Assembly (NCBI GenBank): GCA_963717465.1
Contig: OY970340.1
Span: 1,632,001-1,696,000 of the forward strand
DNA length: 64,000 bases
DNA from: Candidatus Bathyarchaeota archaeon
GTDB lineage: Archaea > Thermoproteota > Bathyarchaeia > Bathyarchaeales > Bathycorpusculaceae
Reading direction: 5' to 3'
The notes beneath the pieces were generated by a model. That model saw nothing but the letters and a program-made list of their open reading frames with translations, was not told where the DNA came from and ran no database searches. Position 1 is the stretch's first letter. Each line of letters starts with the position of its first letter. Positions 15,470-45,448 of the stretch are shown piece by piece. The translations under genes and the position numbers were made by a program.

Positions 15470-15484
15470 TTTTCGTTACATCTC

Positions 15485-18469: not shown

Positions 18470-18660
18470 ATTGCGTCTTGTTAAGTTCAATAGTTGCTCA
18501 AAGAGTTTATTATAACCTTGAAGGATGTATTCAATGACTTCTCCTTTATCATTAAAGACAAGCTCACAGACTTGAACGTCTACATTAAGCATTCTAAAAG
18601 TTTAAGACAATTATCAAAACTATTTTGGAAGATATCTTGAACGATTTGTTTTTCTTCCAT
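18470..18660 (-). pseudogene. frameshifted PAS-domain-like remnant
   Basis: ATG 18660 MEEKQIVQ...; after a shift CELVFNDKGEVIEYILQGYNKLFEQLLNLTR resembles a PAS N-terminus. Confidence 0.35.
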
Positions 18661-18680
18661 AAATCCCAATAATTAATTAT

Positions 18681-18722
18681 TTCTGATTAGGTACTTTATT
18701 AATTCTGATTAGGTATTTTATT
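18681..18722. repeat. 20-bp tandem direct repeat
   Basis: TTCTGATTAGGTACTTTATT (18681) and TTCTGATTAGGTATTTTATT (18703). Confidence 0.8.
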
Positions 18723-19165
18723 TTTTAGGTTTAATCTAATTAACATGACAAAACCACAAGCAGAGATGGCTTGAATTGACCTTGTTTTAGTCCAAGCGAA
18801 TGCAAAAACTGGCAGGAAGAAGAGGTGAAGCATTCCACTTTGGATTAAATGTCAATTCAACCAGCCTCATATTTTTGGATTGGGTTTAGTGCGCACTCCA
18901 AATCAATTGTCTTTTGCGTTATGAAAATATCGTAAGCTGCTTTTACGCATTGATTGGCTGCTTCAAAAATATTTTGATTTGAACTATGATTAAATGGTTC
19001 TGTAGGTATTAATCCCTAAATATGTCTTGGGAGAAATGAGTCTTGAAATCGACATTATTGGATTTTGACCTTTTTGGTTTAAGTCGGTAGGCCTAGCGCT
19101 GCTACAATATATTTAATTAATGTTTACTTAAAGGCTTAAATATCAGTAAAATTTCCAAAGCATTT

Positions 19166-20215: not shown

Positions 20216-20628
20216 GGAAGTCTGTCAACTTCGTTAGGGAAATCTAAAGGTAAATTTTCGAGGAAACGTTAAGGATTATAATCGGCAAACCTCTTCTTTC
20301 GGCACTTGCCAATAAGCTTGGCATGTCGAAAAGTCTTTATTTTTTCTTTACATTTTTTATATGTGTACATTACTTAGAAAAGCATGTGCTCTGTAACTTA
20401 CCTTTCAACTATTATCCTTATTGTGAAAGCGTTCGCCATGAAGAAAGAGTTGATGAATTAATCGAAAAATAAACAGTCACTTTAAGAATTTTTTACAACA
20501 TTAAGAGATAAAGGTAATACTTAACGAATTTGACAGAAATCGGCAGGTTATGGGCAAATAAAGAAGAAGTTTACAAAAAAGTAAAAATATAGGTGTTTTT
20601 TGCTAAAAAACAACAGGTGAACAAAGAC

Positions 20629-21589
20629 ATGTTTAAATTTAAATCTCAACAAAAAATTTTCAAGATAGGAAATGTGAGTATAGGTGGACAGCCGGGAGAA
20701 CTCCCGAAGGTGCTGTTCGGAACCATTTTTTATGGCAAACATAAAATCGTAGAGGACCAGAAAAAAGGCATTTTCGACAGGAAAAAGGCAGAGGAACTGA
20801 TAAATAAACAAGAAGAGCTTTCTGATCTTACTGGTAACCCTTGCGGGTTAGATGTTGTATGCATCTCGCTTGAGTCAGCTTGTAAGTTCATCGATTTTGT
20901 TGCAGAGACAACTGATTGTCCGATTTCAGCAGATATTTGGACGCCCGAGATTAAAATTAAAGTTCTAAATCATATTGCTGAGGTAGGTCTTTCAGATCGA
21001 ATCATTTACAACAGTGTGATGTCAGTTCCGTTGCCCAGCGAAGATGAACTTAATGCTATTAGAGAGTCAAAGGTTAAGTCAGCTGTAATTCTATGTTACA
21101 ACACAAAGGATCGTACGACCAAAGGTGTTTTGTCTTTGCTCAGGGGCACTGAAGAGCAAAAGGGCTTGCTGGACATAGCTCAGGGAGCAGGAATAGAAAA
21201 GCCATTAGTTGACGCAACCATCTTTACATACATTCCAAGCATAGGCGTTGGAGCTAGAGCATGTTACTTAGTAAAAGATGAATTCGGTCTTCCAGTGGGC
21301 GGTTCACCTGGAAACGCAACTACTGTTTGGAAAGAACCAAAAAAGTGGGGACAAGATATCTTTAAAGCGTGTGAAGCAGCGGCAGAAGTTGTACCTTTAG
21401 CCTTAGGCGCAGATTACCTGTTTTATGGACCAGTTGAGTCGGCCCCTTGGGTATTTCCAGCCTGCGCTGGAGTTGACGCAATGATTGCCAGCAGCAGCTA
21501 AAACTGAATTCGGAATAAAAACCTTGACGAAAGAGCATCCACTGTATAAATTATTCCCCGAAATCGTTAAAAAGTTAGACATTGAATAA
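20629..21589 (+). CDS. MtrH/MtgA-family corrinoid:pterin methyltransferase (+1 frameshift near 21490)
   Basis: MFKF...IGGQPGELP..LFGTIFY..HKIV.D...G.FD, IIYNS, GADYLFYGPVE; the shifted tail contains HPLYKLF; AGGTGA before ATG 20629. Confidence 0.88.
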
Positions 21590-21609
21590 GAATAAAGAGA
21601 TGATGCAAT

Positions 21610-22650
21610 ATGGTTGAATTGACTTCTTATGACAGAGTCATGGCTGTTTTAAACGGCAAGAAAAGTTCTGTTGATAGGCTTCCTTGCATAAACTCTGTTA
21701 GTGTAAGCACGATTGATTTCATGAAGTCTTATGATGCTTATTGGCCAGCCGCACACAAAGACCCTGTGAAAATGGCCAAACTTGGCTCGGCGGCTCACAG
21801 ATTATGTGGTCTTGATAACGTGACAGTACCATTTTGTATGACAGTTGAAGCGGAGGCACTTGGAGCGGTGATTAATTTTCACGAAGACACAATAAAGTGG
21901 CCCTCAATTAAAGAATTTCACGTGAACGAGCCTTCAGATCTTAAATTTCCCAATGACGTATCAACAGCTGGAAGAGTTCCAGTCGTCATTGAAGCAATCA
22001 AAATATTGAAAAAAGAATTTGAAGGCAAAGTTCCCGTAAATGCTTACATAACACCACCATTCACGAGCATCAGCAGTTACCTAGTGGACAGCGTTACTTT
22101 CTTGAAGTGGCTGAGAGTTTCGCCAGAAAAGGTTCATCAATTCGTAAAAAGCGCTAACGATTTTTACGCAAAAATAGCAAAATTATACGAAGAAGCTGGG
22201 GCTGACATAATTACTCTTCATGAGATGGGTGCTTCTACAGATAACATATCACCGAGACATTTTGATCAATTCGTTAAGCCTTATATCGTTGACTTGATTA
22301 AGCCTTTGAAGGCAAAAACGATTTTGAACATTTGCGGAGATGCTAATATGATTGTTGACAAAATGGTTGGAACTGGTGCAAGTGCCATATCAGTAGATGA
22401 GAGAACAAAAATTAGCGGAGTTAGAAATGCAGTGGATAAGATTAAGCCAGGTTATCCTGTCGCCGGTAATTGCCCATCCTACACAGTGATACACTTAGGT
22501 ACTGTCGAAAAAATAAGGGACTATGTCAAGCAAAACATCCAAGATGGCGTTGATATTGTGGCTCCCGGTTGTGATTTTTGGCTAGAGACTTCTGTTGATC
22601 ATGTGAAGGCTTTTATTGATGCAGCCAAAGAATTTGGGAAACTACAATGA
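21610..22650 (+). CDS. MtaA/CmuA (URO-D) family methyltransferase, paralogue 3
   Basis: VPFCMTVEAEALGA, LNICG, PGCD; closely similar to 19166-20215. Confidence 0.85.
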   Translation: MVELTSYDRVMAVLNGKKSSVDRLPCINSVSVSTIDFMKSYDAYWPAAHKDPVKMAKLGSAAHRLCGLDNVTVPFCMTVEAEALGAVINFHEDTIKWPSIKEFHVNEPSDLKFPNDVSTAGRVPVVIEAIKILKKEFEGKVPVNAYITPPFTSISSYLVDSVTFLKWLRVSPEKVHQFVKSANDFYAKIAKLYEEAGADIITLHEMGASTDNISPRHFDQFVKPYIVDLIKPLKAKTILNICGDANMIVDKMVGTGASAISVDERTKISGVRNAVDKIKPGYPVAGNCPSYTVIHLGTVEKIRDYVKQNIQDGVDIVAPGCDFWLETSVDHVKAFIDAAKEFGKLQ

Positions 22651-22740
22651 TAAAGAGGAATACTTTACAAAAAAGTATTTATTCCTGCAACAAAACTCAC
22701 GAAACTTAAAGAACTAATAATTTAATGGAGAGAAAAAATA

Positions 22741-23427
22741 ATGAGTGAAACTGAAATATTTAAGAAACTTTCTGATGCAGTTGATACTGGAAACGTTGAG
22801 ATGGCTAAAGAGGCTGCTAACGAGGCTATCGCTAAGGGCGTTCCAGCTTTGAAGGCGATTTTGAATGGGCTTGCAGAAGGAATGAGAATTGTTGGCGTAA
22901 AATACGAAGAAAAGGAATATTTCTTGCCTGACATGCTTGCGGCAGCAGATGCAATGTACGCTGGGATAGAACTTTTGACTCCTCATATTCCTGCGGCGGA
23001 TAGAAAATCAAAAGGAAAGATAGTTATGGGTGTTGTAGAAGGCGATGTTCATGACATTGGAAAAAACATTGTAAAAATAATGTTGACGGCTTCTGGATAT
23101 GAAATCGTGGACTTGGGCAAAGATGTGCCAACAGGCGAATTTATTAATAAAGCTAAGAGTGAAGGAGCGCAAGTAATAGCGATGTCAACGCTTATGACGC
23201 CAACGCTCATGTCTATGAAAACAGTAGAAGAAAAACTGAAAGAATCAGGAATGAAAGACACTGTTAAAACTATCATAGGCGGCGGCTCAGTAAGCGAGGA
23301 ATGGAAGAATAAAATAGGTTCAGATGCTTATGGCGCGGATTCTTCAGAAGCTGTCAGCAAAGTTAAGCAGTTGCTAGATAGTATCATGACCGCTGTAGAC
23401 GTAATGAAAAAAGATCAGAAACAATAA
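22741..23427 (+). CDS. methyltransferase cognate corrinoid protein (MtaC/MtbC-like)
   Basis: GDVHDIGKNIV B12-binding motif, MSTLMT, IIGGG. Confidence 0.93.
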   Translation: MSETEIFKKLSDAVDTGNVEMAKEAANEAIAKGVPALKAILNGLAEGMRIVGVKYEEKEYFLPDMLAAADAMYAGIELLTPHIPAADRKSKGKIVMGVVEGDVHDIGKNIVKIMLTASGYEIVDLGKDVPTGEFINKAKSEGAQVIAMSTLMTPTLMSMKTVEEKLKESGMKDTVKTIIGGGSVSEEWKNKIGSDAYGADSSEAVSKVKQLLDSIMTAVDVMKKDQKQ

Positions 23428-23441
23428 GAAGGTAGACTAGT

Positions 23442-25358
23442 TTGGCTCCTGAAGAAATTGAGATCGTATTTCAGCCCTATGGCAAACGAACAAAGTTTCC
23501 ATCGGGCATCAACCTTTTAGATGCCGCCAAAGGTTTAGGCATAGATTTATCTTCACTATGCTCAGGAAAAGGCACTTGCGGAAAATGCAAAATCAAGATT
23601 CAAAAAGGAGCAGAGGGTTTAAGTCCCCTCACAGAAAAGGAATCAAAGCGCCTATCCCAAGAGGAACTTGACACATCCCACAGATTAGCATGCCAAGCTA
23701 CAATAACAAACTCTGCAATAATCTATGTTCCACTAACAAGCAGAGTGGGAGTTCAGAGACTACAAACTGACGGGCTTGATGTACCAGTAAAACCCAACCC
23801 CTTCGTGAGAAAATACTATTTAGAAATGACTCAACCATCACTTCATGACATGAGGTCTGATGAAGACAGAGTTTTTGATGCATTAAACAAGGAGTACGGT
23901 CTTTCTAACGTAAAATTTGACTTTGACACCGCAAAAACTCTTCCAATAAACCTTCGAAAAGAAGATTGCAAAGCAACCGCTGTTGTCTGGAACGACAAAG
24001 AAATTATTGCTCTCGAACCTGGAAATACCTCCGATAGATGCTTTGGACTTGCCGTGGATATCGGATCTACAAAGCTAGCAGGATTCTTGATGGATCTTAA
24101 AACCGGTCAAGTTGTTGCCGTCGCAGCTAGAATGAACCCCCAAATTCCGCTGGGCGAAGATGTCATGTCAAGGATAACCTATGCTATGATGGGTGAGTGG
24201 AAAGCCATCCAGGAACTCCAAACAGCTGTTGTCTCAGGAATTAACGAAATAACTGAGGAATGCTGCAAAAAGGCAAATGTGAAAATTGAAGAAATATACG
24301 AAACCAACTTCGTCGGTAACACAGCAATGCAACTTTGTTTCCTCGGTTTCTGGTCTAGATATGTAGGCTTCTCACCTTACCCGCCAGTACTTCGAAGAGG
24401 TGTTGATGTACGCGCTGCAAGGTTAGGCTTAAAGGCTCACCCAAATGCGAATACGCACTATCTCCCGGTCATTGGAGGTTTCGTGGGAGCAGATAGTATT
24501 GCATGCATCTTAGCATCAAAACTTCTAGAAGAAGATGAAATCAAAATGATTATCGACGTAGGCACAAACACTGAAATCATGTGCGGAAATAAAGACCTAT
24601 GCATGGCTGACTCTTGTGCATCTGGTCCAGCCTTTGAAGGAATGGAAATAAAATTCGGCATGAGAGCAGCAACAGGAGCTATCGAAAAAATTAGCATTGA
24701 TCCTGATACATTGGACCTTAACTTCAGAACTATTGGAAATGCTCCTGCTGTTGGCATAACTGGATCCGCACTCGTCGACGCTCCAGCTGAGCTTCTGAAG
24801 TCTGGTATAATAAACTTGAGGGGCAACTTTGTTCCAGAAATGATGAAGAGAACTGATAGATTAAGAAAGGGATCTAGCGGCTGGGAATTTGTGATAGCGA
24901 GAAAGAATGAAACAAGCATCGGCACAGATGTCGTTTTAACCTTAGCTGATGTTAGAGCACTCCAGCAGGCAAAAGCTGCAATGCACGTTGGAGCAGACAT
25001 TCTGATGAAAAGGATGAACATTCCAATAGAGAAACTGGATAAACTGGTGATTGCTGGGGCCTTCGGAAACTATATCGACGCCGAAAACGCAAGGACAATC
25101 GGCATGTATCCTGAAGTGCCGCTTGAAAAGATCGCTTTCGTTGGAAACCTTGCTGGCACAGGTTCTAGACTTGCTTTGATTTCAAAAGAAGAAAGAGCGA
25201 AAGCTGAAGAAATAAGCAAAAAGGTAAAGTACTATGAACTTGCAGTGGATCCTGAATTCCAGACAGAATATGCGAAGTCACTGTACTTCCCGCACTCTGA
25301 CCTGGATAAGTATCCAAGCACTAAAGAATTACTGAAGAAGTTAGGTCGCATTCCTTAA
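23442..25358 (+). CDS. ATP-dependent reductive activator of corrinoid proteins (RACE/RACo type, ASKHA/DUF4445)
   Basis: N-terminal [2Fe-2S] CSGKGTCGKC...RLAC; DIGST, DVGTNTE, GPAFEG, AGAFG. Confidence 0.9.
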   Translation: MAPEEIEIVFQPYGKRTKFPSGINLLDAAKGLGIDLSSLCSGKGTCGKCKIKIQKGAEGLSPLTEKESKRLSQEELDTSHRLACQATITNSAIIYVPLTSRVGVQRLQTDGLDVPVKPNPFVRKYYLEMTQPSLHDMRSDEDRVFDALNKEYGLSNVKFDFDTAKTLPINLRKEDCKATAVVWNDKEIIALEPGNTSDRCFGLAVDIGSTKLAGFLMDLKTGQVVAVAARMNPQIPLGEDVMSRITYAMMGEWKAIQELQTAVVSGINEITEECCKKANVKIEEIYETNFVGNTAMQLCFLGFWSRYVGFSPYPPVLRRGVDVRAARLGLKAHPNANTHYLPVIGGFVGADSIACILASKLLEEDEIKMIIDVGTNTEIMCGNKDLCMADSCASGPAFEGMEIKFGMRAATGAIEKISIDPDTLDLNFRTIGNAPAVGITGSALVDAPAELLKSGIINLRGNFVPEMMKRTDRLRKGSSGWEFVIARKNETSIGTDVVLTLADVRALQQAKAAMHVGADILMKRMNIPIEKLDKLVIAGAFGNYIDAENARTIGMYPEVPLEKIAFVGNLAGTGSRLALISKEERAKAEEISKKVKYYELAVDPEFQTEYAKSLYFPHSDLDKYPSTKELLKKLGRIP

Positions 25359-28045: not shown

Positions 28046-29387
28046 ATGATCGGAATGAAGTACAAGGACAAAATAGACCTGTATAGTGAGGAAGGAAAAC
28101 TACTTGAGTCTAATGTACCTCTTGAGGCCATTAGTCCAATTTTAAACCCTGCGATTAAGAAAATAATTCATACATTGATGAGATCCGTCGCTGTTAACTT
28201 AGAAGGCATAGAGAAATCTTTGGCAAACGGAACAGTTGGCGGTGAAGGATGTAAGATTCCTGGAAGAGAACTACAACTCGACATTGTGAAAAATGCCAAT
28301 GTCATTGCAGACAAGGTTTTGGAAAAAGTCAGAGCTAAGAAAGGCGATGATGCTGAAGTTCAAATTCTAGCTGGCGGAAAACAACTCCTAGTTAAATCTC
28401 CAACTCTGAGACTCGAAGCTAGTGCTGAATACACAACATCTTTAACTAACATTGCATCAGCTGTGACGCAAACGATCATTGATGTATTCAACGTATCAAT
28501 GTTCGATGCGGATATGGTTAAAGCAGCTGTTTGGGGCAGGTACCCACAATCAATTAATCTAATGGGCAGTAATCTTGCCTCTGTCCTAGGTGTGCCACAG
28601 GCAAACGAGGGCTTAGGTTACGCTCTAAGAAACATATCCGCGGCTTATGTAGCAATGATATGCAAGAAGAACGCTTTAAACACAGCAGCCTTATCCTCAA
28701 TACTTGAACAGATCAGCAGCGTTCGAAATGGGAGACGCAATCGGCGACTTTGAAAGAATGCAACTTCTCGGACTCGCATTCCAAGGATTAAACGCTAACA
28801 ACCTCGTTTACGACCTTGTTAAGGAAAACGGTAAAACCGGAACAGTCGGCACTGTTATTACCAGCCTCGTAAAACGTGCACTCAAAGACAAAGTTATACG
28901 ACCTCTTGAAAAGAACGAATCAGGTTTTGTTACATATACTACTGACGACATGGCGCTCTGGAACGCATACGCAGGAGCTGGATTATTAGCAGCCACAATG
29001 ATAAGCCAAGGCGCAATGAGAGCTATGCAAGGAGTTTCAGCAGTAGTAGTATATTTCAACGACATGCTCGAACACGAAACAGGATTGCCCTCAGTCGAGT
29101 TCGGCAAATCCATGGGTTCAGGAGTTGAATTCTCATTCTTCAGCCACTCAATATACGGCGGTGGAAGCCCAGTCGTATTCCACGGAAACCACATCGTGAC
29201 AAGACACAGCAAAGGATTCTCCATACCTCCAGTCGCAGCAGCAATCGCACTCGACGCAGGAACAGTTTACTATACACCAGAAAAAGTCGCTGGAATAATT
29301 AGCGAAGTTTTCAGCACAATACCAGAACTAAGAGAGCCAATCGCTCATGTAGCAAAAGCTGCTGCAGAAGTGAAGGCCTCTATATAG
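28046..29387 (+). CDS. mcrB: methyl-coenzyme M reductase beta subunit (+1 frameshift near 28713)
   Basis: [61 protein letters not shown]. Confidence 0.97.
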
Positions 29388-29399
29388 GCGAAAAAATCG

Positions 29400-29847
29400 G
29401 TGCCAAACACACCCCCTCAATTTTCTTTTAAAAATATTTCTGAAAATAACGAAGAAATCGAAATTTTTCCGAATCGTCTATTAAGCCTTGCAACTTTAGA
29501 AAAAATATTAAATAAAATTTCTAAAATTGAAGAAGTTATCTCTGTAACCTTGCAGGGTCAGCGTCTTCCTAAAGAAGAAGCTACTTGCGCTTGTGAAGCT
29601 GAAAACCAAGTTGAGAGCAGAAAGATTCTTGTGCAAAATCAGGAAATTGAAATTCACATCATGACTGGTCGAATAATTCTCGAAGTGCCAAGCCAAGAAA
29701 CTGAAAAAGTTATCAAAAAAATTAAGAAAATATCTGATCAACTGTCTTCCATTTGGCTATAGTATTAGAGTTGGCAAATTCCTTAAAAGAAACGTGTCAC
29801 TAGCTGATTATAAGAGAGAATGGTTTCAAAATATCTCCAAAAAATAA
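29400..29847 (+). CDS. mcrD: MCR operon protein D (+1 frameshift near 29746)
   Basis: IEIFPNRLL...TLEKILN, QGQRLP, GRIILE; shifted tail LPFGYSIRVGKFLK...SLADY; lies between mcrB and mcrC. Confidence 0.9.
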
Positions 29848-29875
29848 TTCGTATCTTTAAGATTCTTAGGAGTCG

Positions 29876-30545
29876 ATGATAAAGTTGCCTGGTGGTTCTT
29901 GTCGCAGAATGGAGAAGCCTTGCATAGGCAAAAAGACACAGTTTATCGATTGCCGAGAGGTAATGGGTTTAGGTTTAGGTGGAGGATTAGCGCAACGTGG
30001 AACTCTCGCTGAAGCGTCTCCTGCAGATGTTATTGTTATAGCTATGTCACCTGGAAGAAGGCATATTACTAAACCCGTTTGCGAAATTACCTCTGCATTA
30101 AGAGAAGCTGGTATCAGTGTGAGTGTTTTGATTTTAGATGCTGGTTCAAGTGTACCACCTGATGCACCTTCCTCAAGACAAGGGTACGGACCAATCTTTG
30201 GTTTGTCTCCAGAAGAATTTGCAAAGAATTTCAAAGCATAAACTTGCAATAATTCATTTGGGAAATGTTAGAGCTCACATTGTTTATAAAGCTCGTGCAA
30301 TTTTGAGAATGGTCAATATTCCTGCGGTTGTTATTTGTCAATGTCCAGTTGATTTTGAGGATTTTGCTGAAGTCGGTGTTAGAACGCGCTTTGTAAAACC
30401 GAATGCGACTGAGGAGCAGACTCTTGGTGAGATTGTTGAAATTGTTACTGACGTGGTAAGGGGTCAAACATGCCCTCGAAGTAAACTCGATGAGATAAGT
30501 GGAAAAGTCAAGTCATCACTAAACTTATTAAGGAAAACAAAATAA
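29876..30545 (+). CDS. mcrC: MCR operon protein C (+1 frameshift near 30224)
   Basis: [54 protein letters not shown]. Confidence 0.95.
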
Positions 30546-30596
30546 TAGTTGAAAAGAAACCATACAATAATTGAGACAAAACGGAGTGTATAGCAT

Positions 30597-31379
30597 TTGG
30601 AAAAATCAGATTATAAGCCTCAATATACCCCTGGCGTCTCCGATGTAGCTAAGAACAGAAGAAACTACATGGACCCAAAGCACAAATTGGAGAAGCTTCG
30701 CTCAATTTCTGACGAATCTCTGATAAGGTTGCTTGGGCATCGCGAGCCTGGAGAAGCCTATAAATCAGTTCACCCACCCCTTGAAGAAATGGGCGAACCT
30801 AAATGCACGATAAGGAAACTTGTTGAACCCACACCTGGAGCCAAAGCTGGTGACAGAATCACATTCATACAATTCACCGATTCTGTGTACTTCTCGCCTT
30901 TGGCACCCTACAGCAGGTGCTGGATGTACATGTCAAGATACAGAGGTGTAGACCCTGGCGCTCTATCAGGAAGATGCCCCCTTGAAATGAGAGAAAGAGA
31001 TTTAGAAGCAGTTTCAAAGGAGCTAATTGAAACAGAAGTTTTCGACCCAGCAAGAACCGCAGTTAGAGGCGCAACAGTACACGGCCACTCTTTGAGACTG
31101 GACGAGAACGGAATGATGTTTGACTTATTAAGACGCTCTGTTTACGACAAGAAGAAGCAAGAAATCACATATGTTAAAGATCAGTTGGGAGTACCGTTAG
31201 ACACGCCAATTGCACTTGGAAAACCGTTACCAGAAGAAGAATTAAGGAAAAGAACAACAATCTTCAGGGCAGACGGAACATCCATACGAAAAGATCCAGA
31301 GCTACTAAAATATATTCAAAGAATTCACACACTAAGAACAATCGCTGGTCATAACCCGGAAAAAGCCAAAGGACTATAA
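30597..31379 (+). CDS. mcrG: methyl-coenzyme M reductase gamma subunit
   Basis: LGHREPGEAYKSVHPPLEEM, GAKAGDR, RGATVHGHSLRLDENGMMFD. Confidence 0.97.
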   Translation: MEKSDYKPQYTPGVSDVAKNRRNYMDPKHKLEKLRSISDESLIRLLGHREPGEAYKSVHPPLEEMGEPKCTIRKLVEPTPGAKAGDRITFIQFTDSVYFSPLAPYSRCWMYMSRYRGVDPGALSGRCPLEMRERDLEAVSKELIETEVFDPARTAVRGATVHGHSLRLDENGMMFDLLRRSVYDKKKQEITYVKDQLGVPLDTPIALGKPLPEEELRKRTTIFRADGTSIRKDPELLKYIQRIHTLRTIAGHNPEKAKGL

Positions 31380-31405
31380 AAAGAGGTTAAAATGAGGTAA
31401 TAATT

Positions 31406-33078
31406 ATGGTTAAGAAAGAAAAAATGTTTTTAGAAGAACTTGAGAAGAAATTCAAGGAAGATCCTACTAAAAAGACTACTACCTACTACCATTTTGGTGG
31501 CTGGAAGCAGTCAAAGAGAAAGCAAGAATTCTACAGAGCTAGCCAAAAGATCGAGAAAGAGAGAGGCATACCGATGTACTCTCCGGATACTTCACTTAGG
31601 TGGTGTACCTGTAGGTCAAAGACTTCTTATGCCCTATAAGATCTCTGGGACAGACGTTTATTGTGAAGGAGACGACTTACATTTCATCAACAACGCAGCC
31701 ATGCAGCAAATGTGGGACGACATAAGAAGGACAGTAATCGTAGGCTTAGATGCCCCGCACAAAGTATTAGAAAGCAGATTAGGCAAAGAAGTAACACCAG
31801 AAACAATAAGCGAATACATGGAAATACTCAACCACACAATGCCTGGAGCAGCAGTAGTTCAAGAACACATGGTTGAAACACACCCCGCACTAGTGTCAGA
31901 TTGCTATGTAAAACTATTCACAGGCAACGATGAGCTTGCAGATGCCATAGACAAAAGATTCGTAATTAACATAAACAAATTATTCCCCAAAGAAAATGCT
32001 GCAGCCCTAAAGAAAGCAATCGGAAACCGCGTTTGGCAAGTAGTCAGAGCACCCTCAATGGTTGGTCGTGTCTGCGACGGTGGAACAATTTCCAGATGGT
32101 CAGCAATGCAAATTTGCATGGCTATGATATGCTCATACAAACTAATGGCAGGAGAAGCAGCCACTGGAGAATTCGCCTATGCATCAAAACACGCCGAATT
32201 AATTGAAATGGGTACAATGACACCTTGGAGAAGACAAAGAGGTCCAAACGAGCCTGGTGGTATTACATTTGGTTATCTAGCTGATATGATCCAATACGAC
32301 AGAGTTCACCCAGATGACCCAGTAAGACAATCCCTTGAAACAATCGCTGCAGGCGCAATGCTATTCGACCAAATATACTTCGGCAGCTACATGTCAGGTG
32401 GTGTAGGATTCACTCAATATGCAACAGCAACCTACACAGACAACATTCTTGACGATATGTGCTATAACATTGCTGATTACGTTAAGAAGAAATATGGCGG
32501 ATTTACAAAGGCAAAAGTTTCCATGGACACTATACTCGACGTTGCAACAGAAGCTACAGAATATGGTCTTGACCAATATGACATGTACCCAACTCTAGCG
32601 GAAACTCACTTCGGAGGCTCACAAAGAACCTCAGTAGTATCTGCCTCAGCAGGAGTAGGTGTCGCTCTCGCTACTGGACGTGCTCAAGCAGGAGTAAACG
32701 GATGGTACCTATCTCAAATACTGCACAAAGAAATAGCCGGCAGACTCTGGATTCTACGGTTACGATGCACAAGACCAAATGGGAGCAGCAAACAGCTTTG
32801 CCTTCCGAGGCGACGAAGGATTGCCAATGGAACTACGAGGACCTAACTATCCAAACTACGCAATGAACGTTGGCCACACCGGTGAATACGCAGGAATAGT
32901 CGCAGCAGCGCATTCAGCTCGAGGAGACGCCTGGTGTTGCAACCCAATAATCAAAGTCGCATTCGCAGACCCAAGCCTCAAATTCGACTTCGTAAACGTC
33001 AGAGCATGCTTCGCAAAAGGCGCCACAAGAGAATTCATGCCTGCTGCAGAACGTACAGCAGTCATACCTCCAAAGTAA
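31406..33078 (+). CDS. mcrA: methyl-coenzyme M reductase alpha subunit (+1 frameshifts near 31589 and 32748)
   Basis: [65 protein letters not shown]. Confidence 0.98.
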
Positions 33079-33110: not shown

Positions 33111-33219
33111 AATTTGTTTGCCTTTTATTTCCAAAAAATTAATATCATAAAAAATTACAGACTACTTCAAAGGGAAAAATTTAGCAGTTTTAATGAATAA
33201 TTACGGGGAGTATGAAGTC

Positions 33220-33597
33220 ATGGTAACGTTAAAAGTCGATCCTGGCGCTTGCAGATTCAACGCAGTCATCAATGTTAAGAAAGTGCTGGACGGAGAAGTT
33301 GAGCAAAAGAAAGCATCCGGCGCAGACATATTGAGGACGCTTGGTGGAGAAGTTGAAATAAGCATCATAAGTCAATGCCCAAATATTACGAAGCTAAAAC
33401 AAGCAATAGGTAAGGTTAAAATTTCTGAGGCAATTACATTGCCAAGTAGAAACATTATAATAAAAAAGGCTAATGAAACGTTGCCACACTCGGCATGTCC
33501 ACTTCCCTGTGCAATAATTAAAGCTGTTGAAGCAGAAATAGGCTTTGCAACCAAAAAAGATGTGGAGATATCCTTTGAAAAGTCTGAAAACATTTAA
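33220..33597 (+). CDS. Cys-rich conserved protein, DUF6951-like
   Basis: VDPGACRF, SQCPNI, HSACPLPCAIIKAVEAEIG. Confidence 0.65.
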   Translation: MVTLKVDPGACRFNAVINVKKVLDGEVEQKKASGADILRTLGGEVEISIISQCPNITKLKQAIGKVKISEAITLPSRNIIIKKANETLPHSACPLPCAIIKAVEAEIGFATKKDVEISFEKSENI

Positions 33598-35269: not shown

Positions 35270-36298
35270 ATGTCAAGTAGACTCAGCGATAAAGAAATTC
35301 AAATTATCCTAAATAAATCACTATCAAATAAACTCATCACAAAAGAAGAAGCAACAGCCCTTATGAAAGTTCCAATATTCTCAAAAGAAATGTATGACCT
35401 ATGCTATGTGGCAAACAAATTGTCGCGTGATCAATTCAAAAACAAAGGTGAAGTACATGCTCAAGTAGGCTTGGATTTCTCACCGTGCGCCAACGACTGT
35501 AAATTCTGCGTTTTTGGCAGTTTGGACCAGAAAGCAATTAGATTAAGTCCTCAGGAAGTTGTAGAAAGAGCCAAAGCCTTTCAAGATGCAGGAGCAAACG
35601 CAATTTACCTGATGACGACAGGTAGCTATGACTTCAAAGAATTCATTAGTATTGGCAAGAAAGTAAAAGCAGCTTTATTACCTACTATGCCTTTAGTTGC
35701 GAACATTTATGATTTTGGAGCAGAACAAGCTGAAGACTTAGCAAAAGCAGGTTTTACGGCAATATACCATGCCATTAGACTCCGAGAAGGAAAAGACACA
35801 AAAATTGACCCTAAAAAAAGAATACAAACAATAAAAAACGCTCAGAAAGCAGGATTAGACAGTTTATTCTGCATTGAACCTATTGGACCGGAACATGCAG
35901 TAGATGAAATAGTTGATCTCATGTTTTTAGGAAAAGAACTTAGAGTAACATTCAGTGGAGCAATGAAAAGAGTCTGTGCACCAGGCACACCACTCCATAA
36001 AAACGGTGAAATCTCCTATTGGGAACTTGCCAAAACGGTCGCTGTATCAAGGCTCGTTATGGGCAAATCTGCTTTAGGTCACTGCACCCACGAGCCAAAT
36101 ATGCCCTCATTGCTTGCGGGGGCAAATTTGATTTGGGCTGAGACAGGACCAAACCCAAGAGATGCTGAAAAAGAGACATCAAAATCCCGTGGGCTTGCTG
36201 TTTTGAATTGTCGCAAAATTTTGTGGGAATCAGGTTTCGAGCAGCTTGAGGGTCCATCGCCTTCTGCATTGGGTTCTCTACGCAAGCAGCAGGTTTAA
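35270..36298 (+). CDS. BioB/HydE/PylB-like radical SAM protein, function unknown
   Basis: CANDCKFC motif, RLREG, CIEPIGPEH, CTHEP, GANL. Confidence 0.85.
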   Translation: MSSRLSDKEIQIILNKSLSNKLITKEEATALMKVPIFSKEMYDLCYVANKLSRDQFKNKGEVHAQVGLDFSPCANDCKFCVFGSLDQKAIRLSPQEVVERAKAFQDAGANAIYLMTTGSYDFKEFISIGKKVKAALLPTMPLVANIYDFGAEQAEDLAKAGFTAIYHAIRLREGKDTKIDPKKRIQTIKNAQKAGLDSLFCIEPIGPEHAVDEIVDLMFLGKELRVTFSGAMKRVCAPGTPLHKNGEISYWELAKTVAVSRLVMGKSALGHCTHEPNMPSLLAGANLIWAETGPNPRDAEKETSKSRGLAVLNCRKILWESGFEQLEGPSPSALGSLRKQQV

Positions 36299-36328
36299 CC
36301 ATTTTCTTTCTTCTTGAGGCTTTGAGAA

Positions 36329-37228
36329 TTGAATCAGCCGTTAAAAGGTTTCTTGCCATGGACTTGCGTAATCGTTGCTTCGGTTGCAACCATTTTTATA
36401 GGTAACTATTTTGGCGTGGATCCTGTCACTTTATCAGTCTATACGTTATTTGCGTGTTGGTTCTCTTTTATTATTTCCTATTCTGACAAATGGCCACTGA
36501 GAAAATATTCACAGCCCCTTCAAGGAGCACTATTTCTTGTCGCGTGTATCATTTACGCGTTTGTTCAACCCTATGTCCAAGTGAACATTCTCAATTATGG
36601 AACAGAGAATTATTGGCCGATAATTGCAAACCTTTTCTTTGCATTAGGCTTATCTGCCGCATTTGATAACAGACTTGTTAAAGGGTTAAAACAGCCCAAA
36701 GCGGTGATTCTCAACGCCTTTTTCTGGTACCTCATAACAATCGTGTTACTATTAACAATCGGATATGTTCCATCAATTTGGTTTGCATTTTTCGTGTTGT
36801 ACTTTTTCTGGTTTGACAGATACCCAATTGGAACTATGAAACAGCCATTCAAAGGAATTTTGTCATTTGTAGTGATGGGTGCGTCATCTTTGGTTTTAGA
36901 GTTTGCTTTTAGGCTTGCTGGCACAAGCTTTGTTGGAGGGAACTTGGTTGGTCCAGTTTGGTTTGCTCATTGGGTTTTTTGGCTGGTGGCAACCTCGTGG
37001 GTTTTTAAAAATTATCCTTTTGAGAAACTTCGGCAACCCTTAAAAGGGATAGTTGGAACAGCAATGACTGTCGCTTTAGCCTTATGTTCATTTTACATAA
37101 CTAATAATTTAGCAGGCCTGCCCCTGGCAGAGAATTTGGGATACGCGTGGGTGTTTGTAAGCTGGGTATACATTTGGCCCATCGTCTTTGGATCGTGGCC
37201 AGCTCGTGATAAAGAGATAAAAAATTGA
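36329..37228 (+). CDS. polytopic membrane protein
   Basis: About 10 hydrophobic segments with a repeated (W/Y)P...QP.(K/Q)G motif. Confidence 0.75.
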   Translation: MNQPLKGFLPWTCVIVASVATIFIGNYFGVDPVTLSVYTLFACWFSFIISYSDKWPLRKYSQPLQGALFLVACIIYAFVQPYVQVNILNYGTENYWPIIANLFFALGLSAAFDNRLVKGLKQPKAVILNAFFWYLITIVLLLTIGYVPSIWFAFFVLYFFWFDRYPIGTMKQPFKGILSFVVMGASSLVLEFAFRLAGTSFVGGNLVGPVWFAHWVFWLVATSWVFKNYPFEKLRQPLKGIVGTAMTVALALCSFYITNNLAGLPLAENLGYAWVFVSWVYIWPIVFGSWPARDKEIKN

Positions 37229-38240: not shown

Positions 38241-39143
38241 TTACGTTAGAGGCTTTGGCGATCTTTCAACCGTTAGTGTAGGTAGCTTTGCTTTCAATAT
38301 CACTAACGGTTCCTTAAGTGCTTCTGCTCTTGCCAACAAAATGCCCTTACCAGTTTCTGTAATAGCGAACACGGGTATTGCCATGCCTTCTTGAAGTAAA
38401 GCTTTAGGTCCAACAATCTCACGAACAGTCTTCGATGCGCAACCCCACACTATATCCGCATGGTTAGCTAAGATTTCAGCGTCTTGCAGGCTTATCCCAG
38501 TGTTATGAACCGCAAAAATAACCACGTTGACTCCCTTTTCTTTCTCAATCTTTCTAATCTTTATAACTTCTTGTGCTTCTCGTCCAGTCACCGTTACTGC
38601 AATCTTCTTATAGCCCGAATCAGCAGCTTTACAAACACCTTTTGCCTGATTTATCGTTGCATCTAATGGATTTAAAACTGAAGCACCTTTCGCCTCCAGT
38701 TTCTCTATGACCTTGGGAACAGGAGAGGTCTTTTCGATTCCAGTTAGTCTCGCTCCAATTCCTTGGACAAGATAAGGATTATTCGTCACCACAGTACCGG
38801 CTCCATCACACGCGATAACGGCTGAATCGAGAATTCCTCTCATCATCACTGTCATGATCATTTCTGACGCTCCAAAGAGCACAAAATCTTCATGATCCAA
38901 AGCTCTTCGCTCGGTGTATGTTCCAAATTTCCTGATGTTTTGCTCAACCATTGATCTTATAGTATCCTTAGTGAGAAACTTAATTCCATAAGCGCGGTCA
39001 TAAAGTGGACAATAATTTGTCGTGAGATCTTCAATTTCTTTTACAATACCGTCCTCTATTACAACACGAGCTCCGGCAAATCGAATGACGTGCCTGTCTT
39101 TCGTCCCGTATGCACTTTTACGTTGATTTTTTTTGCCAGTCAT
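38241..39143 (-). CDS. methanogenesis marker protein 8 (DUF2099)
   Basis: DRHVI, YCPL, FGASE, ACDGAGTV, LVQGIG.R..G, AVHNTG, CASK.VRE. Confidence 0.85.
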   Translation of the reverse strand: MTGKKNQRKSAYGTKDRHVIRFAGARVVIEDGIVKEIEDLTTNYCPLYDRAYGIKFLTKDTIRSMVEQNIRKFGTYTERRALDHEDFVLFGASEMIMTVMMRGILDSAVIACDGAGTVVTNNPYLVQGIGARLTGIEKTSPVPKVIEKLEAKGASVLNPLDATINQAKGVCKAADSGYKKIAVTVTGREAQEVIKIRKIEKEKGVNVVIFAVHNTGISLQDAEILANHADIVWGCASKTVREIVGPKALLQEGMAIPVFAITETGKGILLARAEALKEPLVILKAKLPTLTVERSPKPLT

Positions 39144-39205
39144 AAAGTGTCCCTTAACTAATTGCGAACCTATAATTTTTAATGCAATTTAAATTACATT
39201 TAATG

Positions 39206-40126
39206 TTAGATTGTGATTGCAACAACTGATTCTGGTAGGATCTTTACTATTGTGTGTCCTTTTATTTCTGATGCTTTGACTTTAGCGACGTCTCTTATCT
39301 TAACTTTCTCTGCAAGATTTACGTTTAGAATTTTTTCTTGGTACTTGTTGAAGGGAAGTTTTACTCTTAACCCGTCAAGTTTGACTACTATTGGAGCTGG
39401 TGAAACAACTTGCTTTATAGCTGGAACTTGCTGTTCTATCATTTTCTTAACAAAAAATGGTTGAATTGCAGGGGGATCGTTGTCTATATCTTCTCTTCTC
39501 TTATCAATACAACGTGTTACCGCGTTTGCAATGCGTTCAAGTACTTTGATTTCTTCCTCTTTTTGAAACCGACGGCATATCCTTTCTACCCCACTAACGT
39601 ACTCACCCACATACGGCATTTTCTCTTCAATCTGTGGAGCGCCAGTGACGATTATTGGAATCGTTATATCTGAAATCAGCTTTGCTTTTTCCGTAATGCA
39701 TTTGCTAAAACATCCAAGAGCAAGCACAGCAGCATCATGCTCCTCAAGCAATCTTTTTTCCGACTCACTTATCTGGGCAATCCTGCGGCCAACCCCTCTT
39801 GCTAACCCAATAAAATTGGTTTTTGCACCTTGACGCCTCAAGTATTCAGCTATGTCGCAGAGTGGATGAGGCATATGTTGAGGGGAAAGAGAAGGCGCAA
39901 CGATAGCTATTTCAGTGCCACCTAAAGGCGCGTTTTCTATTTCCCCATGGAGTTCTTGAGCTTTTTCTCGAACTTTGTTCGTGTCTTTCTCTGGTACTGC
40001 AATTAGCATAATTACTCCTGTTTGGGTAATGTTCTTTTGTACCACAAATCCTCCAAGATCCTCTACTAACTCTTCGATTTCATTCTGCCTATACACTCCG
40101 CCGGTGTAGGTTAATGTGATATACAA
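39206..40126 (-). CDS. mmp7: methanogenesis marker protein 7
   Basis: YTGGVYR..E..ELVEDLGGF, HMPHPLCDIAEYLRRQGAK, GLARGVGR, LDGLRVKLP. Confidence 0.92.
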   Translation of the reverse strand: MYITLTYTGGVYRQNEIEELVEDLGGFVVQKNITQTGVIMLIAVPEKDTNKVREKAQELHGEIENAPLGGTEIAIVAPSLSPQHMPHPLCDIAEYLRRQGAKTNFIGLARGVGRRIAQISESEKRLLEEHDAAVLALGCFSKCITEKAKLISDITIPIIVTGAPQIEEKMPYVGEYVSGVERICRRFQKEEEIKVLERIANAVTRCIDKRREDIDNDPPAIQPFFVKKMIEQQVPAIKQVVSPAPIVVKLDGLRVKLPFNKYQEKILNVNLAEKVKIRDVAKVKASEIKGHTIVKILPESVVAITI

Positions 40127-41019
40127 GTGTCATCCTCTCGGTTGATGCCTCTTTTTTCTAAGCCTGGGATTCCGCATGCATCTGCTCTACACATTTTGCA
40201 TAATCTAAACTGTGGAATATGAGGTTCGCAAAGGTCACGACTCGTCCTTAATTCTTCGCATGTTGGAGAGCGCAAGTCTTTGAAGTTATGAAGCGGCAAA
40301 AGCGGAATTATGTTCATTTTAAACGCTCCAAGTTTGGAGACTACTTTCGCGATTTCTTCAACATGTTTATCGTTTATTCCAGGTATGAGAACAGTGTTTA
40401 CTTTTATGCATAAGCCTTTTTTTGCGGCTAATTTTATTCCTTCAATCTGGTTCTTTGTAATTATCTCTCCAGCACGCAAACCCGTGTATTTCTTTCCTTC
40501 ATACACGATATATTCATAGATTTTTGCTGCGATGGCTGGATCCACGGCGTTGACTGTGACAGTTATGGTTTTTACGCCAGCCTCCACTAGTTCATCCACT
40601 TTCTTTGGCAAGAGTAAACCGTTTGTTGCGATACAATTTATTAGGTTTGGAAACTCTTGATGAACTCTCTTAAGAGTTGTGAATGTTGCTTCATTTGCAA
40701 GAGAATCCCCTGGACCGGCAACTCCGACTACTGTTAGTTGCGGATACTCTTTGACGGTTTTTCTGACTTTTTCTAAAGCTTCATCCGGAGTTAAGATGCG
40801 TGATGCTACGCCTGGTCTATTCTCGCATTTGTTAATGCTTCTTTTGCAGAAATTGCATTGTACATTACATTTGGGTGCAACAGGCAAGTGTAGTCTTGCA
40901 CATTGAGAATGAGCTTTATCATTGAAGCATGGGTGCAGCATCGTTGCATGAGCGAACTTTGAGTATTGTTTCGCGTCACGTGCACTCTTAAATTTATAAT
41001 TAAATCCTTTATCTTTCAA
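40111..41019 (-). CDS. nifB: NifB-type radical SAM protein (stand-alone, methanogen type)
   Basis: HPCF, RLHLPVAPKCNVQCNFC, ENRPGV, GVAGPGD.LAN, CKMCRADA; start uncertain. Confidence 0.9.
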   Translation of the reverse strand: MKDKGFNYKFKSARDAKQYSKFAHATMLHPCFNDKAHSQCARLHLPVAPKCNVQCNFCKRSINKCENRPGVASRILTPDEALEKVRKTVKEYPQLTVVGVAGPGDSLANEATFTTLKRVHQEFPNLINCIATNGLLLPKKVDELVEAGVKTITVTVNAVDPAIAAKIYEYIVYEGKKYTGLRAGEIITKNQIEGIKLAAKKGLCIKVNTVLIPGINDKHVEEIAKVVSKLGAFKMNIIPLLPLHNFKDLRSPTCEELRTSRDLCEPHIPQFRLCKMCRADACGIPGLEKRGINREDDTCISH

Positions 41020-41596
41020 GCGAATCAGCCTTCTTAATAATTTCTTTGGATAATTCGAGCCATGACGGTTTAATCGGGTCTTCAGAGGCAACGATCAAGA
41101 TTTTTGAGTCATGCGTTGTTGAGTATCTAACACGCATTCCTTCAGGAATCATTCTAGTCAACGTGTCTATTATTCTATTAAGTAGCTCCTCTTTTGGGTC
41201 ATCAATAACCATTTCCGATAATTCTTCAACTTTTATCGGCTTTTCAATGACGATTTCATACCTGCTGGGTTGGCTGACTTCTTCTTTCCCGTACTTGTTG
41301 AAAAGGGCTCTTAGCAGTTTTGGCATGTAAGAATCGTCTTCTGCCGTTAGACTAACTCCTTTTTCAAGTTGTCGAATGGTTATAACCTCTGAGGCTTTTA
41401 CTGCTCTGCCTGATACAGCGTAAACTGCATAGATCATGAAGACTGGTTCTTCTGGATTAATGTAAATATACAAGCTCTTGATGGCGCTTTGAATCATGGA
41501 CTCTGCTAAGATTGATTCGATATAAGTTTGGTATGCTCGGCGGCTTGCCTCATCTGGAACTTCTATTGTGAGTTTTTCGGAACCTATTGTTGACAT
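41009..41596 (-). CDS. mmp17: methanogenesis marker protein 17
   Basis: PEEPVF, QPSRY, IPEGMRVR, ASED; position after mmp15. Confidence 0.85.
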   Translation of the reverse strand: MSTIGSEKLTIEVPDEASRRAYQTYIESILAESMIQSAIKSLYIYINPEEPVFMIYAVYAVSGRAVKASEVITIRQLEKGVSLTAEDDSYMPKLLRALFNKYGKEEVSQPSRYEIVIEKPIKVEELSEMVIDDPKEELLNRIIDTLTRMIPEGMRVRYSTTHDSKILIVASEDPIKPSWLELSKEIIKKADSLER

Positions 41597-42825
41597 TACT
41601 TGTCCTCCAGCAGTCCGGAAACTAGGACGGCTGAACCGACGGCGCCTATGAACGGAGAATGTTCTGGAACTATTACATCCATGTAGAGTGTGTCTTCCAT
41701 GGCTTTTACTAATCCCTTAACTAAAGATGTTCCTCCGACCTCAATTATTGGCGGTCGAAGGTCGATTTCTTGTAGTTGCTGCTCGAAAACTTGTTCTGCT
41801 ACGCTGTGGCACGCTGCAGCTGCGACGTCTGCTGGTGATGTTCCCGCTGCTAACGCGGTGCTTAAGTCCTGCATTCCGAAGACTATGCAGTATGCATTCA
41901 TCATTACTTTGTCATAATGCCCTTTTAGAGCCAATTCACCTAGCTCGACAACGTCCATTCCTAATCTTTTCGCGGTTACTTCAAGAAATTTCCCTGAGGC
42001 GCCTGCGCAAATACCTCCCACTGTGAAGCTGTCAGGTATGCCGTCATGCAGAGTTACTGCTTTGTTATCCATTCCTCCAATATCTAGTACTGTTGCGTCG
42101 CCTTTTTGCCTGTTCGCTAAAAATACTGCTCCTTTTGAATTTACTGTTATTTCGTCTTGGATTAGTTTTGCTTTGAAACGTTCTCCGACCAGGAATCTTC
42201 CATAGCCAGTTGTGCCAATAGCTTGAATGTCCTTTGCTTGAACTTTGGCTTGTTCTAACGCGGTTTCAAACGCTTTTTGGGCTGTTTCAACAATGTCAAC
42301 TGTAGGTATCCACGCTTCGCCGATAATTTGGTTATCTTTCATAATTGCGACTTTTGTTGTGGTAGAACCTGAGTCTATCCCTGCGGTAAGTCCTTCTTGC
42401 TTGGTTCTAGCCAATAACGCTTTTTTAGCGATGATATTTACTAGTGCTTCCATTCTTAAACGAAAATTGCCTGCTTTTGTTCTCTCAGTAAACGAGTAGG
42501 AAACAATTGGAATGTTTGCTTCAAGTTGAAGGTACCTTCTTATTGCGCTTCGCACAATTGCTCCTTCAGCACATCTGAAACAGGTTGCAATTAAAGCGCC
42601 ATCGACGTTGGATTTTCCTTCAGCGATTGATTTGGCTCTTGCCATCATAACTTTTAAGCCATTACTTGCAACCTTCAATCCGAACTCTTGGGAAACCTTG
42701 TTAATGTCTTCAGTAGCAACTTCAGGTATAACGATAGTTGCTCCAACATCTTTTGCAGTAGTTTCAATTTCTTTTTGAATTCCACTGTATTCTGTTCCGC
42801 AGGATATTTGTGCAATTTTTATCAA
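41596..42825 (-). CDS. mmp15: methanogenesis marker protein 15 (ASKHA ATPase)
   Basis: [44 protein letters not shown]. Confidence 0.93.
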
Positions 42826-43283
42826 TTTTTCGTCTCCTCTAATGATTTGAGAAAGTCTATTATTTTGCTAACCATCTGTTTTGCTTCTTTCTTGTTTTTC
42901 GGATAATTGACAACGATGTGCGGAATTTTATGCTGCTTGATAAGATACACTAAGAACTCATTTGACCTGGCGCAACCACAACACCCAAACCCGAAATCAG
43001 CGTCGTCAATTATAATTGCTGCGTCAGCTTTCTCTACGAGCGGTCCCCACATTGATAGACGGCCCCTGACTCCTGAGGGCACCTCGACAGCCGCGTACTT
43101 CAAGCCTTTTCTTGGTTCTTCAGCTGTTATGTTCATGGGCGGAGAATCTATTTCTGGATTCTTTACGATTTTTCCAATTTCGCTCATCATTGTTAAAGGT
43201 ACATGACCGCTCCTCTCAACTATATCAGCCAGAACAAGACTGTTTACTGGAGAAATTAGAACATTTTTAGCCAGATTTATCAC
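42822..43283 (-). CDS. mmp5: methanogenesis marker protein 5
   Basis: [45 protein letters not shown]. Confidence 0.93.
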
Positions 43284-43746
43284 GCTTCTGCTTATTCTTA
43301 TTTGAATTTAAAATATCAATCGCAATTTCTTTAATTTCATCAGCTTCCACTTTTCTCTCTTCTCTTTTTTTAGCTACACGCTTGCCTCTATCAATATCTT
43401 CTAAGGCTTCACTGATGAATGGTAGAACATCAAATTCCATTTCAAGCTGATGATAGCCTGGTTTAGGGCCTCCTCCTCTATCAGCTCTACAAATTCTGCG
43501 ATCACCAATCGGGAAACCTCTCTCTTTCATAAAAACATCGTAAGTAAATGACTTTCTCAATTCTTGAACAGCTTTATTCACATGCTCTGCTTCTCCCTCA
43601 ATAAGAAGGCCGTAGCATGTTTCCTTAACCTTGATTGGCAGTCCTAACGAGTAAACCTTCACCGCGAGTTCAGAAGGCGTACGATTTGATTTTGGTGAAA
43701 GCACAACCATTCTCGTCTTAACTTCACTCATGAGACTACTCCTCAA
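43267..43746 (-). CDS. mmp6: methanogenesis marker protein 6
   Basis: KETCYG, KERGFPIGD.RICRA.RGGG..PGYHQLE.E. Confidence 0.92.
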   Translation of the reverse strand: MRSSLMSEVKTRMVVLSPKSNRTPSELAVKVYSLGLPIKVKETCYGLLIEGEAEHVNKAVQELRKSFTYDVFMKERGFPIGDRRICRADRGGGPKPGYHQLEMEFDVLPFISEALEDIDRGKRVAKKREERKVEADEIKEIAIDILNSNKNKQKRDKSG

Positions 43747-45277: not shown

Positions 45278-45448
45278 TTCTTAACTTGCTTACTGCTTGT
45301 TAACTAATCTAAATAAATCCCTTTACCTTAGGATTAGTATGCATATCTTATCGCATATATTTAGTTTTTTTATGAAAAGTGAGCAGATAACATTAAATGT
45401 TAGGAAGATTTAGCACATAAACAACTTTGGGCAATTTCATGGATTCAG

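Follow-up and report, generated by a model that had tools for sequence, protein, structure and literature searches.

A group II methyl-coenzyme M reductase operon within a methanogenesis gene island of a Candidatus Bathyarchaeota genome

Which enzyme is encoded by a frameshifted mcrA gene with unusual residues, and does the gene belong to the bathyarchaeal genome in which it was found? The gene, coding for the alpha subunit of methyl-coenzyme M reductase (MCR), lies in the window, i.e. the whole 64,000-nucleotide stretch analysed (C1:1632001-1696000 of genome G000 of Candidatus Bathyarchaeota archaeon, GCA_963717465.1, a single contig of 3,053,889 bases). We consider it highly probable that it encodes a canonical group II McrA, that it belongs to an mcrBDCGA operon on a gene island of a Bathyarchaeon, and that its frameshifts are assembly consensus errors. 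The noteworthy features of the locus are the host and the island, rather than the McrA residues to which a preliminary description of this DNA had drawn attention.

The mcrA gene occupies 31406-33078 on the forward strand in three frames (31406-31588, 31590-32747 and 32749-33078); the given sequence holds two +1 shifts and no uninterrupted frame. The translations of the three pieces (61, 386 and 109 amino acids) were free of stops and summed to 556 amino acids, the length of the nearest relative, the intact metagenome protein P0001. The middle piece was matched by the Pfam profiles MCR_alpha_N (E 1e-116) and MCR_alpha (E 9e-59). The domains were covered at positions 1-58 and 63-269 of PF02745 and positions 1-127 of PF02249, all above cut-off. 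The McrA motifs quoted in the preliminary description were all recovered in their places in the window sequence and translations:

31854-31871, forward strand: VVQEHM motif
32103-32126, forward strand: AMQICMAM motif
32187-32195, forward strand: KHA motif
32370-32390, forward strand: QIYFGSY motif
32388-32423, forward strand: 12-letter McrA motif
32607-32630, forward strand: HFGGSQRT motif
32749-32781, forward strand: 11-letter McrA motif, in another reading frame than the motifs above
32866-32880, forward strand: NVGHT motif, likewise in another frame than the motifs before 32749

The middle McrA piece was 90% identical to P0001, 76% to the protein of an Archaeoglobi metagenome-assembled genome (MAG), 72% to Methanosuratincola and Korarchaeum, 70% to Nezhaarchaeales and 68% to Methanothermobacter marburgensis. 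In a maximum-likelihood tree of 61 rows (IQ-TREE, LG+C20+F+G4, group III sequences left out), the window McrA was placed within the group II clade of 40 rows (support 100/97), the type of the TACK archaea (Thaumarchaeota, Aigarchaeota, Crenarchaeota and Korarchaeota). It paired with P0001 (100/100) on a stem of 0.186. P0004 joined this pair (92/93), and the trio was joined with the Korarchaeia and Archaeoglobi types (83/89). Against alpha chains of solved MCR structures, the middle piece scored up to 593 bits, with 16 of the 17 MCR entries at 513-593 bits and the entry 3sqg of ANME-1 (anaerobic methanotrophs) at 453 bits. It was not closer to alkyl- or ethyl-coenzyme M reductases (ACR, ECR): the score with the ethyl-coenzyme M reductase 7b1s was 321 bits, and the identity with an ACR-like gene of genome G461 was 44%. 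Because of its tree position, the structure-chain scores and the gene order, we assign the protein, as judged from its sequence, to the canonical methane-type MCR alpha subunits inside the known group II, as a sublineage of its own. The earlier expectation of a methane-type rather than an alkane-type enzyme thus held, with MtaA-type genes, whose products form methyl-coenzyme M, adjoining the operon as a further point in its favour; that of a deep-branching clade gave way to a distinct sublineage inside a described group.

The two other Bathyarchaeia McrAs that were found (G045/L040 and G215/L026) share host class and enzyme group with the window, as does a Jinwuousiales MAG according to the accessible text of PMC10321748. 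They were 69-70% identical, belonged to mcrBGA operons and came from other orders than G000, as read from kinship labels. Together with P0019 they branched beside Nezhaarchaeota, apart from the window pair. Forcing them into one clade with this pair was rejected in an approximately unbiased (AU) test on 33 rows under LG+G4 (difference in log-likelihood 123, p-AU 1.1e-5). The MCR lineage of the window is, on these trees, separate from theirs.

Residues were counted in an alignment of the window with 200 distinct McrA sequences, 39 from group II and 161 from outside it, using the numbering of M. marburgensis as checked on P0063. The window McrA has conserved Q147, H257, R270/R271, F330, Y333, Q400, F443, G445 and D450. 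We take Gln147 to be the axial ligand of F430, and F330, Y333 and F443 to be channel residues, following the MCR structure literature; His257, Arg270/271, Gln400, Gly445 and Asp450 presumably have the catalytic or modified roles given in the literature on MCR structure and modification. The codons of three positions are located as follows:

31860-31862, forward strand: Gln147, within VVQEHM; Gln in 38 of 39 group II sequences (one gap) and in 161 of 161 others
32628-32630, forward strand: Thr402, in FGGSQR-T two residues after Gln400; the sole lineage-specific substitution
32779-32781, forward strand: Met452; Met in 5 of 39 group II sequences, Cys in 21 of 39 group II sequences and in 158 of 161 others

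MCR I of M. marburgensis (P0063; PDB 1hbm, 1mro), a group I enzyme, has the active-site and modified positions checked in common with the window except for C452. The substitutions relative to it are G232C, S234A, W319Y, L320F, A402T, L448A, C452M and Q485T. With Met rather than Cys at position 452, the window McrA cannot carry the S-methylcysteine found in M. marburgensis. The departures from the classical consensus listed in the preliminary description are real when compared with the group I-type majority: outside group II, G232 was present in 134 of the 161 sequences, W319 in 142, L320 in 159, A402 in 161, L448 in 159, C452 in 158 and Q485 in 134. Within group II, by contrast, seven of the eight substituted residues compared occur in other sequences (of 39: C232 7, A234 15, Y319 5, F320 32, A448 15, M452 5, T485 5), so that the neighbouring residues are unusual only against the sequences outside group II. 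The exception is Thr402, which was found in one group II sequence (P0001) and in none of the 161 others, Ala standing there in 38 of 39 and in all 161. The possibility raised earlier, that McrA nests in a described clade with the same substitutions, was borne out as far as clade and substitutions are concerned, although named members of that clade are only 72-76% identical. One of them, the Korarchaeia protein P0008 (Ca. Korarchaeum sp., 72%), has YDAQDQM and NVGHT exactly as in the window and differs in A402, S232 and W319. At 178 columns conserved in at least 97% of sequences, the window and the intact P0001 each depart three times, two of these departures being common to both. The residues differing from group I are mostly the normal group II signature, with Ala402Thr marking the sublineage.

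mcrA is the last gene of an operon mcrB-mcrD-mcrC-mcrG-mcrA (28046-33078, forward strand), and all five mcr genes were matched by Pfam profiles. The four genes directly upstream of mcrA are:

28046-29387, forward strand: mcrB, in two frames (MCR_beta_N with MCR_beta 1-33 in one, MCR_beta 36-249 in the following one)
29400-29847, forward strand: mcrD, split between the first frame (MCR_D 1-95) and the +1 frame (MCR_D 97-120)
29876-30545, forward strand: mcrC, with weak MCR_C matches; both halves colinear with the gene intervening between mcrD and mcrG elsewhere
30597-31379, forward strand: mcrG, intact; MCR_gamma 1-245 of 246, E 3.9e-122

In Archaeoglobi-type, Methanocaldococcus and Methanothermobacter loci, the gene that separates mcrD from mcrG is colinear with the two halves of mcrC and in one frame, with identities of 52-69%. 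The order mcrBDCGA is common to the Archaeoglobi-type loci L028, L029, L030 and L045 and to group I, and the order mcrBGA was found in Methanosuratincolia, Nezhaarchaeota, MAGs labelled 'Nitrososphaerota' and the other Bathyarchaeia loci. The Archaeoglobi MAGs (P0002, L028-L030, L045) thus hold both the named McrA of highest identity, from the same subclade, and the gene order of the window; their McrB, McrG and McrC were 73-74%, 72-75% and 60-69% identical, respectively. They differ from the window in that their host belongs to another phylum, that the window pair has its own stem, and that AtwA was only 52-53% identical.

The operon is interrupted at five sites. mcrA has two shifts, as had been proposed; both are of the +1 type, and the first lies outside the range (31840..32900) of the preliminary description:

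about 28713, forward strand: mcrB shift, one extra base; absent from related peat contigs
about 29744, forward strand: mcrD shift, one extra base; absent from three related contigs
about 30227, forward strand: mcrC shift, one extra base; absent from one related contig
31588-31589, forward strand: first mcrA shift, extra T or A in ccggatactt; the base at 31588 absent in run X1, that at 31589 in run X2
32747-32748, forward strand: second mcrA shift, extra base in gactctgga; absent at 32747 in run X1

DNA of relatives was obtained as Logan contigs from two peat-metagenome runs (X1 and X2) of one study, and shows that relatives of the window mcr genes are present in peat metagenomes; run X3 gave next to no match to the operon. 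Of 54 contig pieces, none was at least 99% identical to the operon at the nucleotide level, 12 were 95-99%, 21 were 90-95% and 21 were below 90% identical. The contigs of the peat relatives had exactly one base fewer at each of the five sites, and P0001 reads ...PDLHLGG... across the first mcrA shift and ...GRLGFYGYD... across the second. Apart from one 3-base in-frame insertion in mcrD, the remaining indels listed against these relatives were intergenic. mcrB and mcrC were colinear in one frame in all relatives' loci compared. Third codon positions of the corrected frames accounted for 30 of the 38 best-supported coding differences (10 of 10 in mcrB and mcrA), in a count on the best 40 of 422 differences.

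The frequency of such shifts in the whole genome was estimated with 403 open reading frames (ORFs) from 400 kb of congener G003, which yielded 202 non-redundant orthologues and 178 kb of alignment. G000 had 49 frame changes (0.28 per kb), 45 of them +1, in 34 of the 202 genes. They were clustered: 168 genes had none, 26 had one, five had two, two had four and one had five. Among the genes broken were those for enolase, the PolD small subunit (four shifts), PurL (four), TruD (five), PurD, adenylosuccinate lyase, an aconitase-family protein and CdhD; examples lie at 551765-559246, 682454-692034 and 281842-283214 of C1. A concentration of shifts in the most conserved genes was considered and rejected (0.40, 0.33, 0.35 and 0.13 per kb at identities of 45-60, 60-70, 70-80 and 80+). 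Marker completeness (CheckM) was 88% for G000; for 19 of the 24 listed congeners it ranged from 86 to 100%. Because the same +1 breaks occur in conserved genes, essential ones included, the signal is not mcr-specific, and because they hit genes that a living cell cannot all have lost, the five operon frameshifts most probably arose as consensus errors in the assembly, with the real gene intact. If so, about one in six genes of this assembly would carry a spurious +1 shift, and pseudogene-like signals in any of its windows are suspect. A sixth +1 split was observed in the window in the gene for a LipS1-family lipoyl synthase (57415-58213; profile positions 33-141 and 129-262 in two frames).

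The breaks might alternatively be five real mutations in a truly decaying operon, left in a former methanogen with a dead MCR. With five breaks in about 5 kb, the operon is shifted at 1.0 per kb against the genome mean; elsewhere in the window a single further split gene was recognised, and none of the 119 congeners needs MCR. We nevertheless hold decay to be quite unlikely, given the breaks in conserved genes elsewhere and the third-position pattern described above. The operon suffered insertions only, with zero stop codons, deletions or losses of catalytic residues, and odd residues were no commoner than in the intact P0001 (3 versus 3). Full-length profile matches were obtained for the remaining 30-odd methanogenesis genes on the island.

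This island extends from about 12.1 kb of the window to about 72.45 kb, i.e. 8.45 kb beyond the window end, and thus measures about 60 kb. Its DNA had no match in five good congeners except for a few short ones at 65-69% identity, and both flanks matched all five at 70-76%. Besides the mcr operon, it contains:

13070-16950, reverse strand: hdrA (with an MvhD-like end), hdrB and hdrC; Pfam, with NCBIfam CoB_CoM_SS_B and CoB_CoM_SS_C above cut-off
17197-25358, forward strand: methyltransferase cluster with, in a row, three MtaA/CmuA-family genes, one MtrH-family gene, a corrinoid protein and a RACo/AcsV-type activase
38241-49624: marker block with methanogenesis markers 8, 7, 17, 15, 5 and 6, Mmp3 and AtwA (component A2), all NCBIfam above cut-off
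38241-49624: further genes of the marker block, namely DUF2117, a marker-2-like gene (below cut-off) and a NifB-like radical SAM gene
52221-54602, forward strand: coenzyme M synthesis, with cysteate synthase and a fused sulfopyruvate decarboxylase; TIGR03844, TIGR03845 and TIGR03846 above cut-off

The score of the HdrA2 profile (889 bits) was below its cut-off. The NifB-like radical SAM gene (40111-41091), which stands among markers 7 and 17, was matched by TIGR01290 with 317 bits, just below the cut-off.

That the island is an assembly chimera, taken from another MCR-bearing archaeon, is very unlikely. It was found in one of the 120 genomes of the genus, its two host-like flanks are not adjacent in congeners, and the assembly is error-prone. 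Yet it is flanked by host-like blocks on either side within one contig of 3.05 Mb, its guanine-plus-cytosine fraction is close to that of the genome (0.405 versus 0.401), and its tetranucleotide make-up is ordinary, 22% of 50 genome windows being further from the mean. The linkage of McrA and AtwA moreover recurs in a relative, since both genes (90% and 81% identity, respectively) are on one 46,044-base contig, which we take to be that of P0001. AtwA was 81-86% identical to its closest relatives, 60% to P0246, 58% to P0247 and 51-56% to all named AtwA proteins.

McrA was found in none of the 119 congeners searched, which leaves G000 alone among the 120 species genomes of the genus. In the order, 2 of 400 genomes had a match, one of 44% in an ACR-like frame of 620 amino acids (G461) and one partial, of 51%; in the class, 2 of 400 had one, with 70% and 69% identity. 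Because the order of G000 holds an ACR-like gene, there are hints that this order is Baizomonadales. Vps4 of the window (3577-4740) was 87-88% identical to named Ca. Bathyarchaeia proteins. Public contigs encoded AtwA of 84-86% (P0243, P0242) and Vps4 of 93-95% identity (P0122, P0123). Close sister populations carrying the island are probably to be found beyond the species genomes covered by the search.

Methane formation by Bathyarchaeia has been an open question since 2015. In the part of PMC10321748 that was accessible, Hou et al. (2023) reported group II mcr from a single one of 304 Bathyarchaeia MAGs, a member of Jinwuousiales, and assigned BA1 and BA2, with ACR, to Baizomonadales. A 2025 review (PMC12694404), in the text available, cited a single Bathyarchaeia MAG with canonical mcr and filed the methane role as unresolved. 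In the portion at hand of a 2025 preprint (10.1101/2025.10.16.682713), a Bathyarchaeia clade was listed within group II, and the peat group II mcrA of its survey were all Methanosuratincola-like. For this Bathyarchaeia genus, the search of available full texts did not turn up any described canonical MCR; such cases may be listed in supplements, which were outside its scope. With the window, a second and separate Bathyarchaeia group II MCR lineage is added to this, in a genome of one contig and with the whole accessory set in one block.

As to metabolism, MtrA was not found in the G000 genome (88% complete, positive search controls), and neither was MtaB; methyltransferases and HdrABC are present in the window. 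About ten weak frames of the MttB superfamily were also detected in the genome, which further encodes three [NiFe] hydrogenases, one of these just beyond the island. As a gene inventory, this would fit methyl-reducing methanogenesis without Mtr. Methyl groups would pass from the corrinoid protein to coenzyme M (CoM) through an MtaA-type enzyme, MCR would convert methyl-CoM and coenzyme B to methane, and the thiols would be regenerated by HdrABC with a hydrogenase. The layout of the methyltransferase cluster could pass one corrinoid-bound methyl pool to either CoM or tetrahydromethanopterin. The cluster (17197-25358) also recalls O-demethylase-type systems. Taken together, a small branch of a large, otherwise MCR-free genus may have acquired the complete island of about 60 kb, with an MCR of the mcrBDCGA type resembling Archaeoglobi and Korarchaeia, as a second independent entry of group II into Bathyarchaeia, and may be a working methyl-reducing methanogen of peat-like habitats, possibly using methoxyl groups, in which MtaA- and MtrH-type enzymes share one methyl pool without Mtr. 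This picture is tentative, and we put its chances at somewhat short of even.

An ACR acting on ethane or longer alkanes would be another conceivable product of the operon. Bathyarchaeia of the same order have divergent ACR-like genes (G461; BA1 and BA2 in the accessible text of PMC10321748), and some neighbours of the substrate channel deviate from the group I consensus. The BA1/BA2-type enzymes of group III come from the same host class and probably the same order, but they form a different enzyme group, and the window protein scored far lower with the solved ECR than with MCRs. The supported group II placement, the mere 44% identity to the G461 gene, the length of 556 amino acids without ACR-type insertions, and the MtaA-type and CoM synthesis genes adjoining mcrA all make an alkane substrate highly improbable.

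Read-through of the +1 sites by programmed frameshifting or four-base decoding, with real and translated shifts, would account for the prevalence of +1 among the frame changes of the genome and for broken essential genes that would otherwise be lethal, but is barely conceivable with five sites that have no common motif (aga[t]cag, act[g]tct, aag[a]att, gga[t/a]ctt, act[c]tgg) and with related populations that do not have the extra base. A candidate four-base decoding tRNA, 'tRNA-???(ccgg)' of ARAGORN, was rejected as an intron-bearing tRNA-Trp(CCA). A Ty1-like site 'ctt agg t' at the first mcrA shift was likewise discarded, as P0001 and the contigs place the shift two codons upstream. ARAGORN also returned two similar candidates for 'tRNA-SeC(tca)' (C1:845695-845779 and 2829638-2829723), in which the variable arms are long and the acceptor stems imperfect.

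Several points weigh against the reading of an intact group II MCR on a bathyarchaeal island. The contigs compared were all from relatives, with 0 of 54 pieces at 99% identity or more, and the absence of the extra bases in the strain itself is thus inferred. The operon of about 5 kb has five shifts, compared with a single further split gene, LipS1, that was recognised in a non-exhaustive scan of the window ORFs; comparable clusters of four to five shifts in single genes occur elsewhere in the genome. Four of the five inserted bases lie outside homopolymers, in contrast to the most frequent type of long-read error. For order and class, the genomes searched were draws of 400 from larger groups, and the group constrained in the AU test was chosen after the tree had been seen. 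Finally, group II hosts all encode other routes of energy conservation, according to the text available of the 2025 preprint (10.1101/2025.10.16.682713).

A poor match of standard mcrA primers had been anticipated, and was seen in silico with ME1 only, which had three mismatches (32103-32122). The primers mlas (32397-32419) and mcrA-rev (32846-32869) each matched with one mismatch.

Several neighbouring genes were noted in addition. A DUF6951 gene (33193-33597) lies directly 3' of mcrA; a Methanomassiliicoccaceae MAG (L081) has a weak homologue (29% over 126 amino acids) close to its mcr locus. Between mcrA and the marker block, the region 35270-37228 encodes a radical SAM protein, weakly BioB-like, and a protein of 299 amino acids without family match, which by eye looks like a multi-pass membrane protein.

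Near the beginning of the window, a tRNA-Lys(UUU) gene (5911-5988) is located near a fragment (7040-7504) matching only the C-terminal part of a phage-integrase domain. Rfam, at the gathering threshold, reported only one tRNA in the window. Two CdvA-like genes and Vps4, a Cdv cell-division set, were found at 1916-4743 and 8534-9304. In congeners, the second CdvA-like gene stands at a different locus, in one block with tRNA-Lys(UUU) and a PadR gene, and the first Cdv block (1916-4743) was syntenic in all five congeners checked, with 70-76% nucleotide identity.

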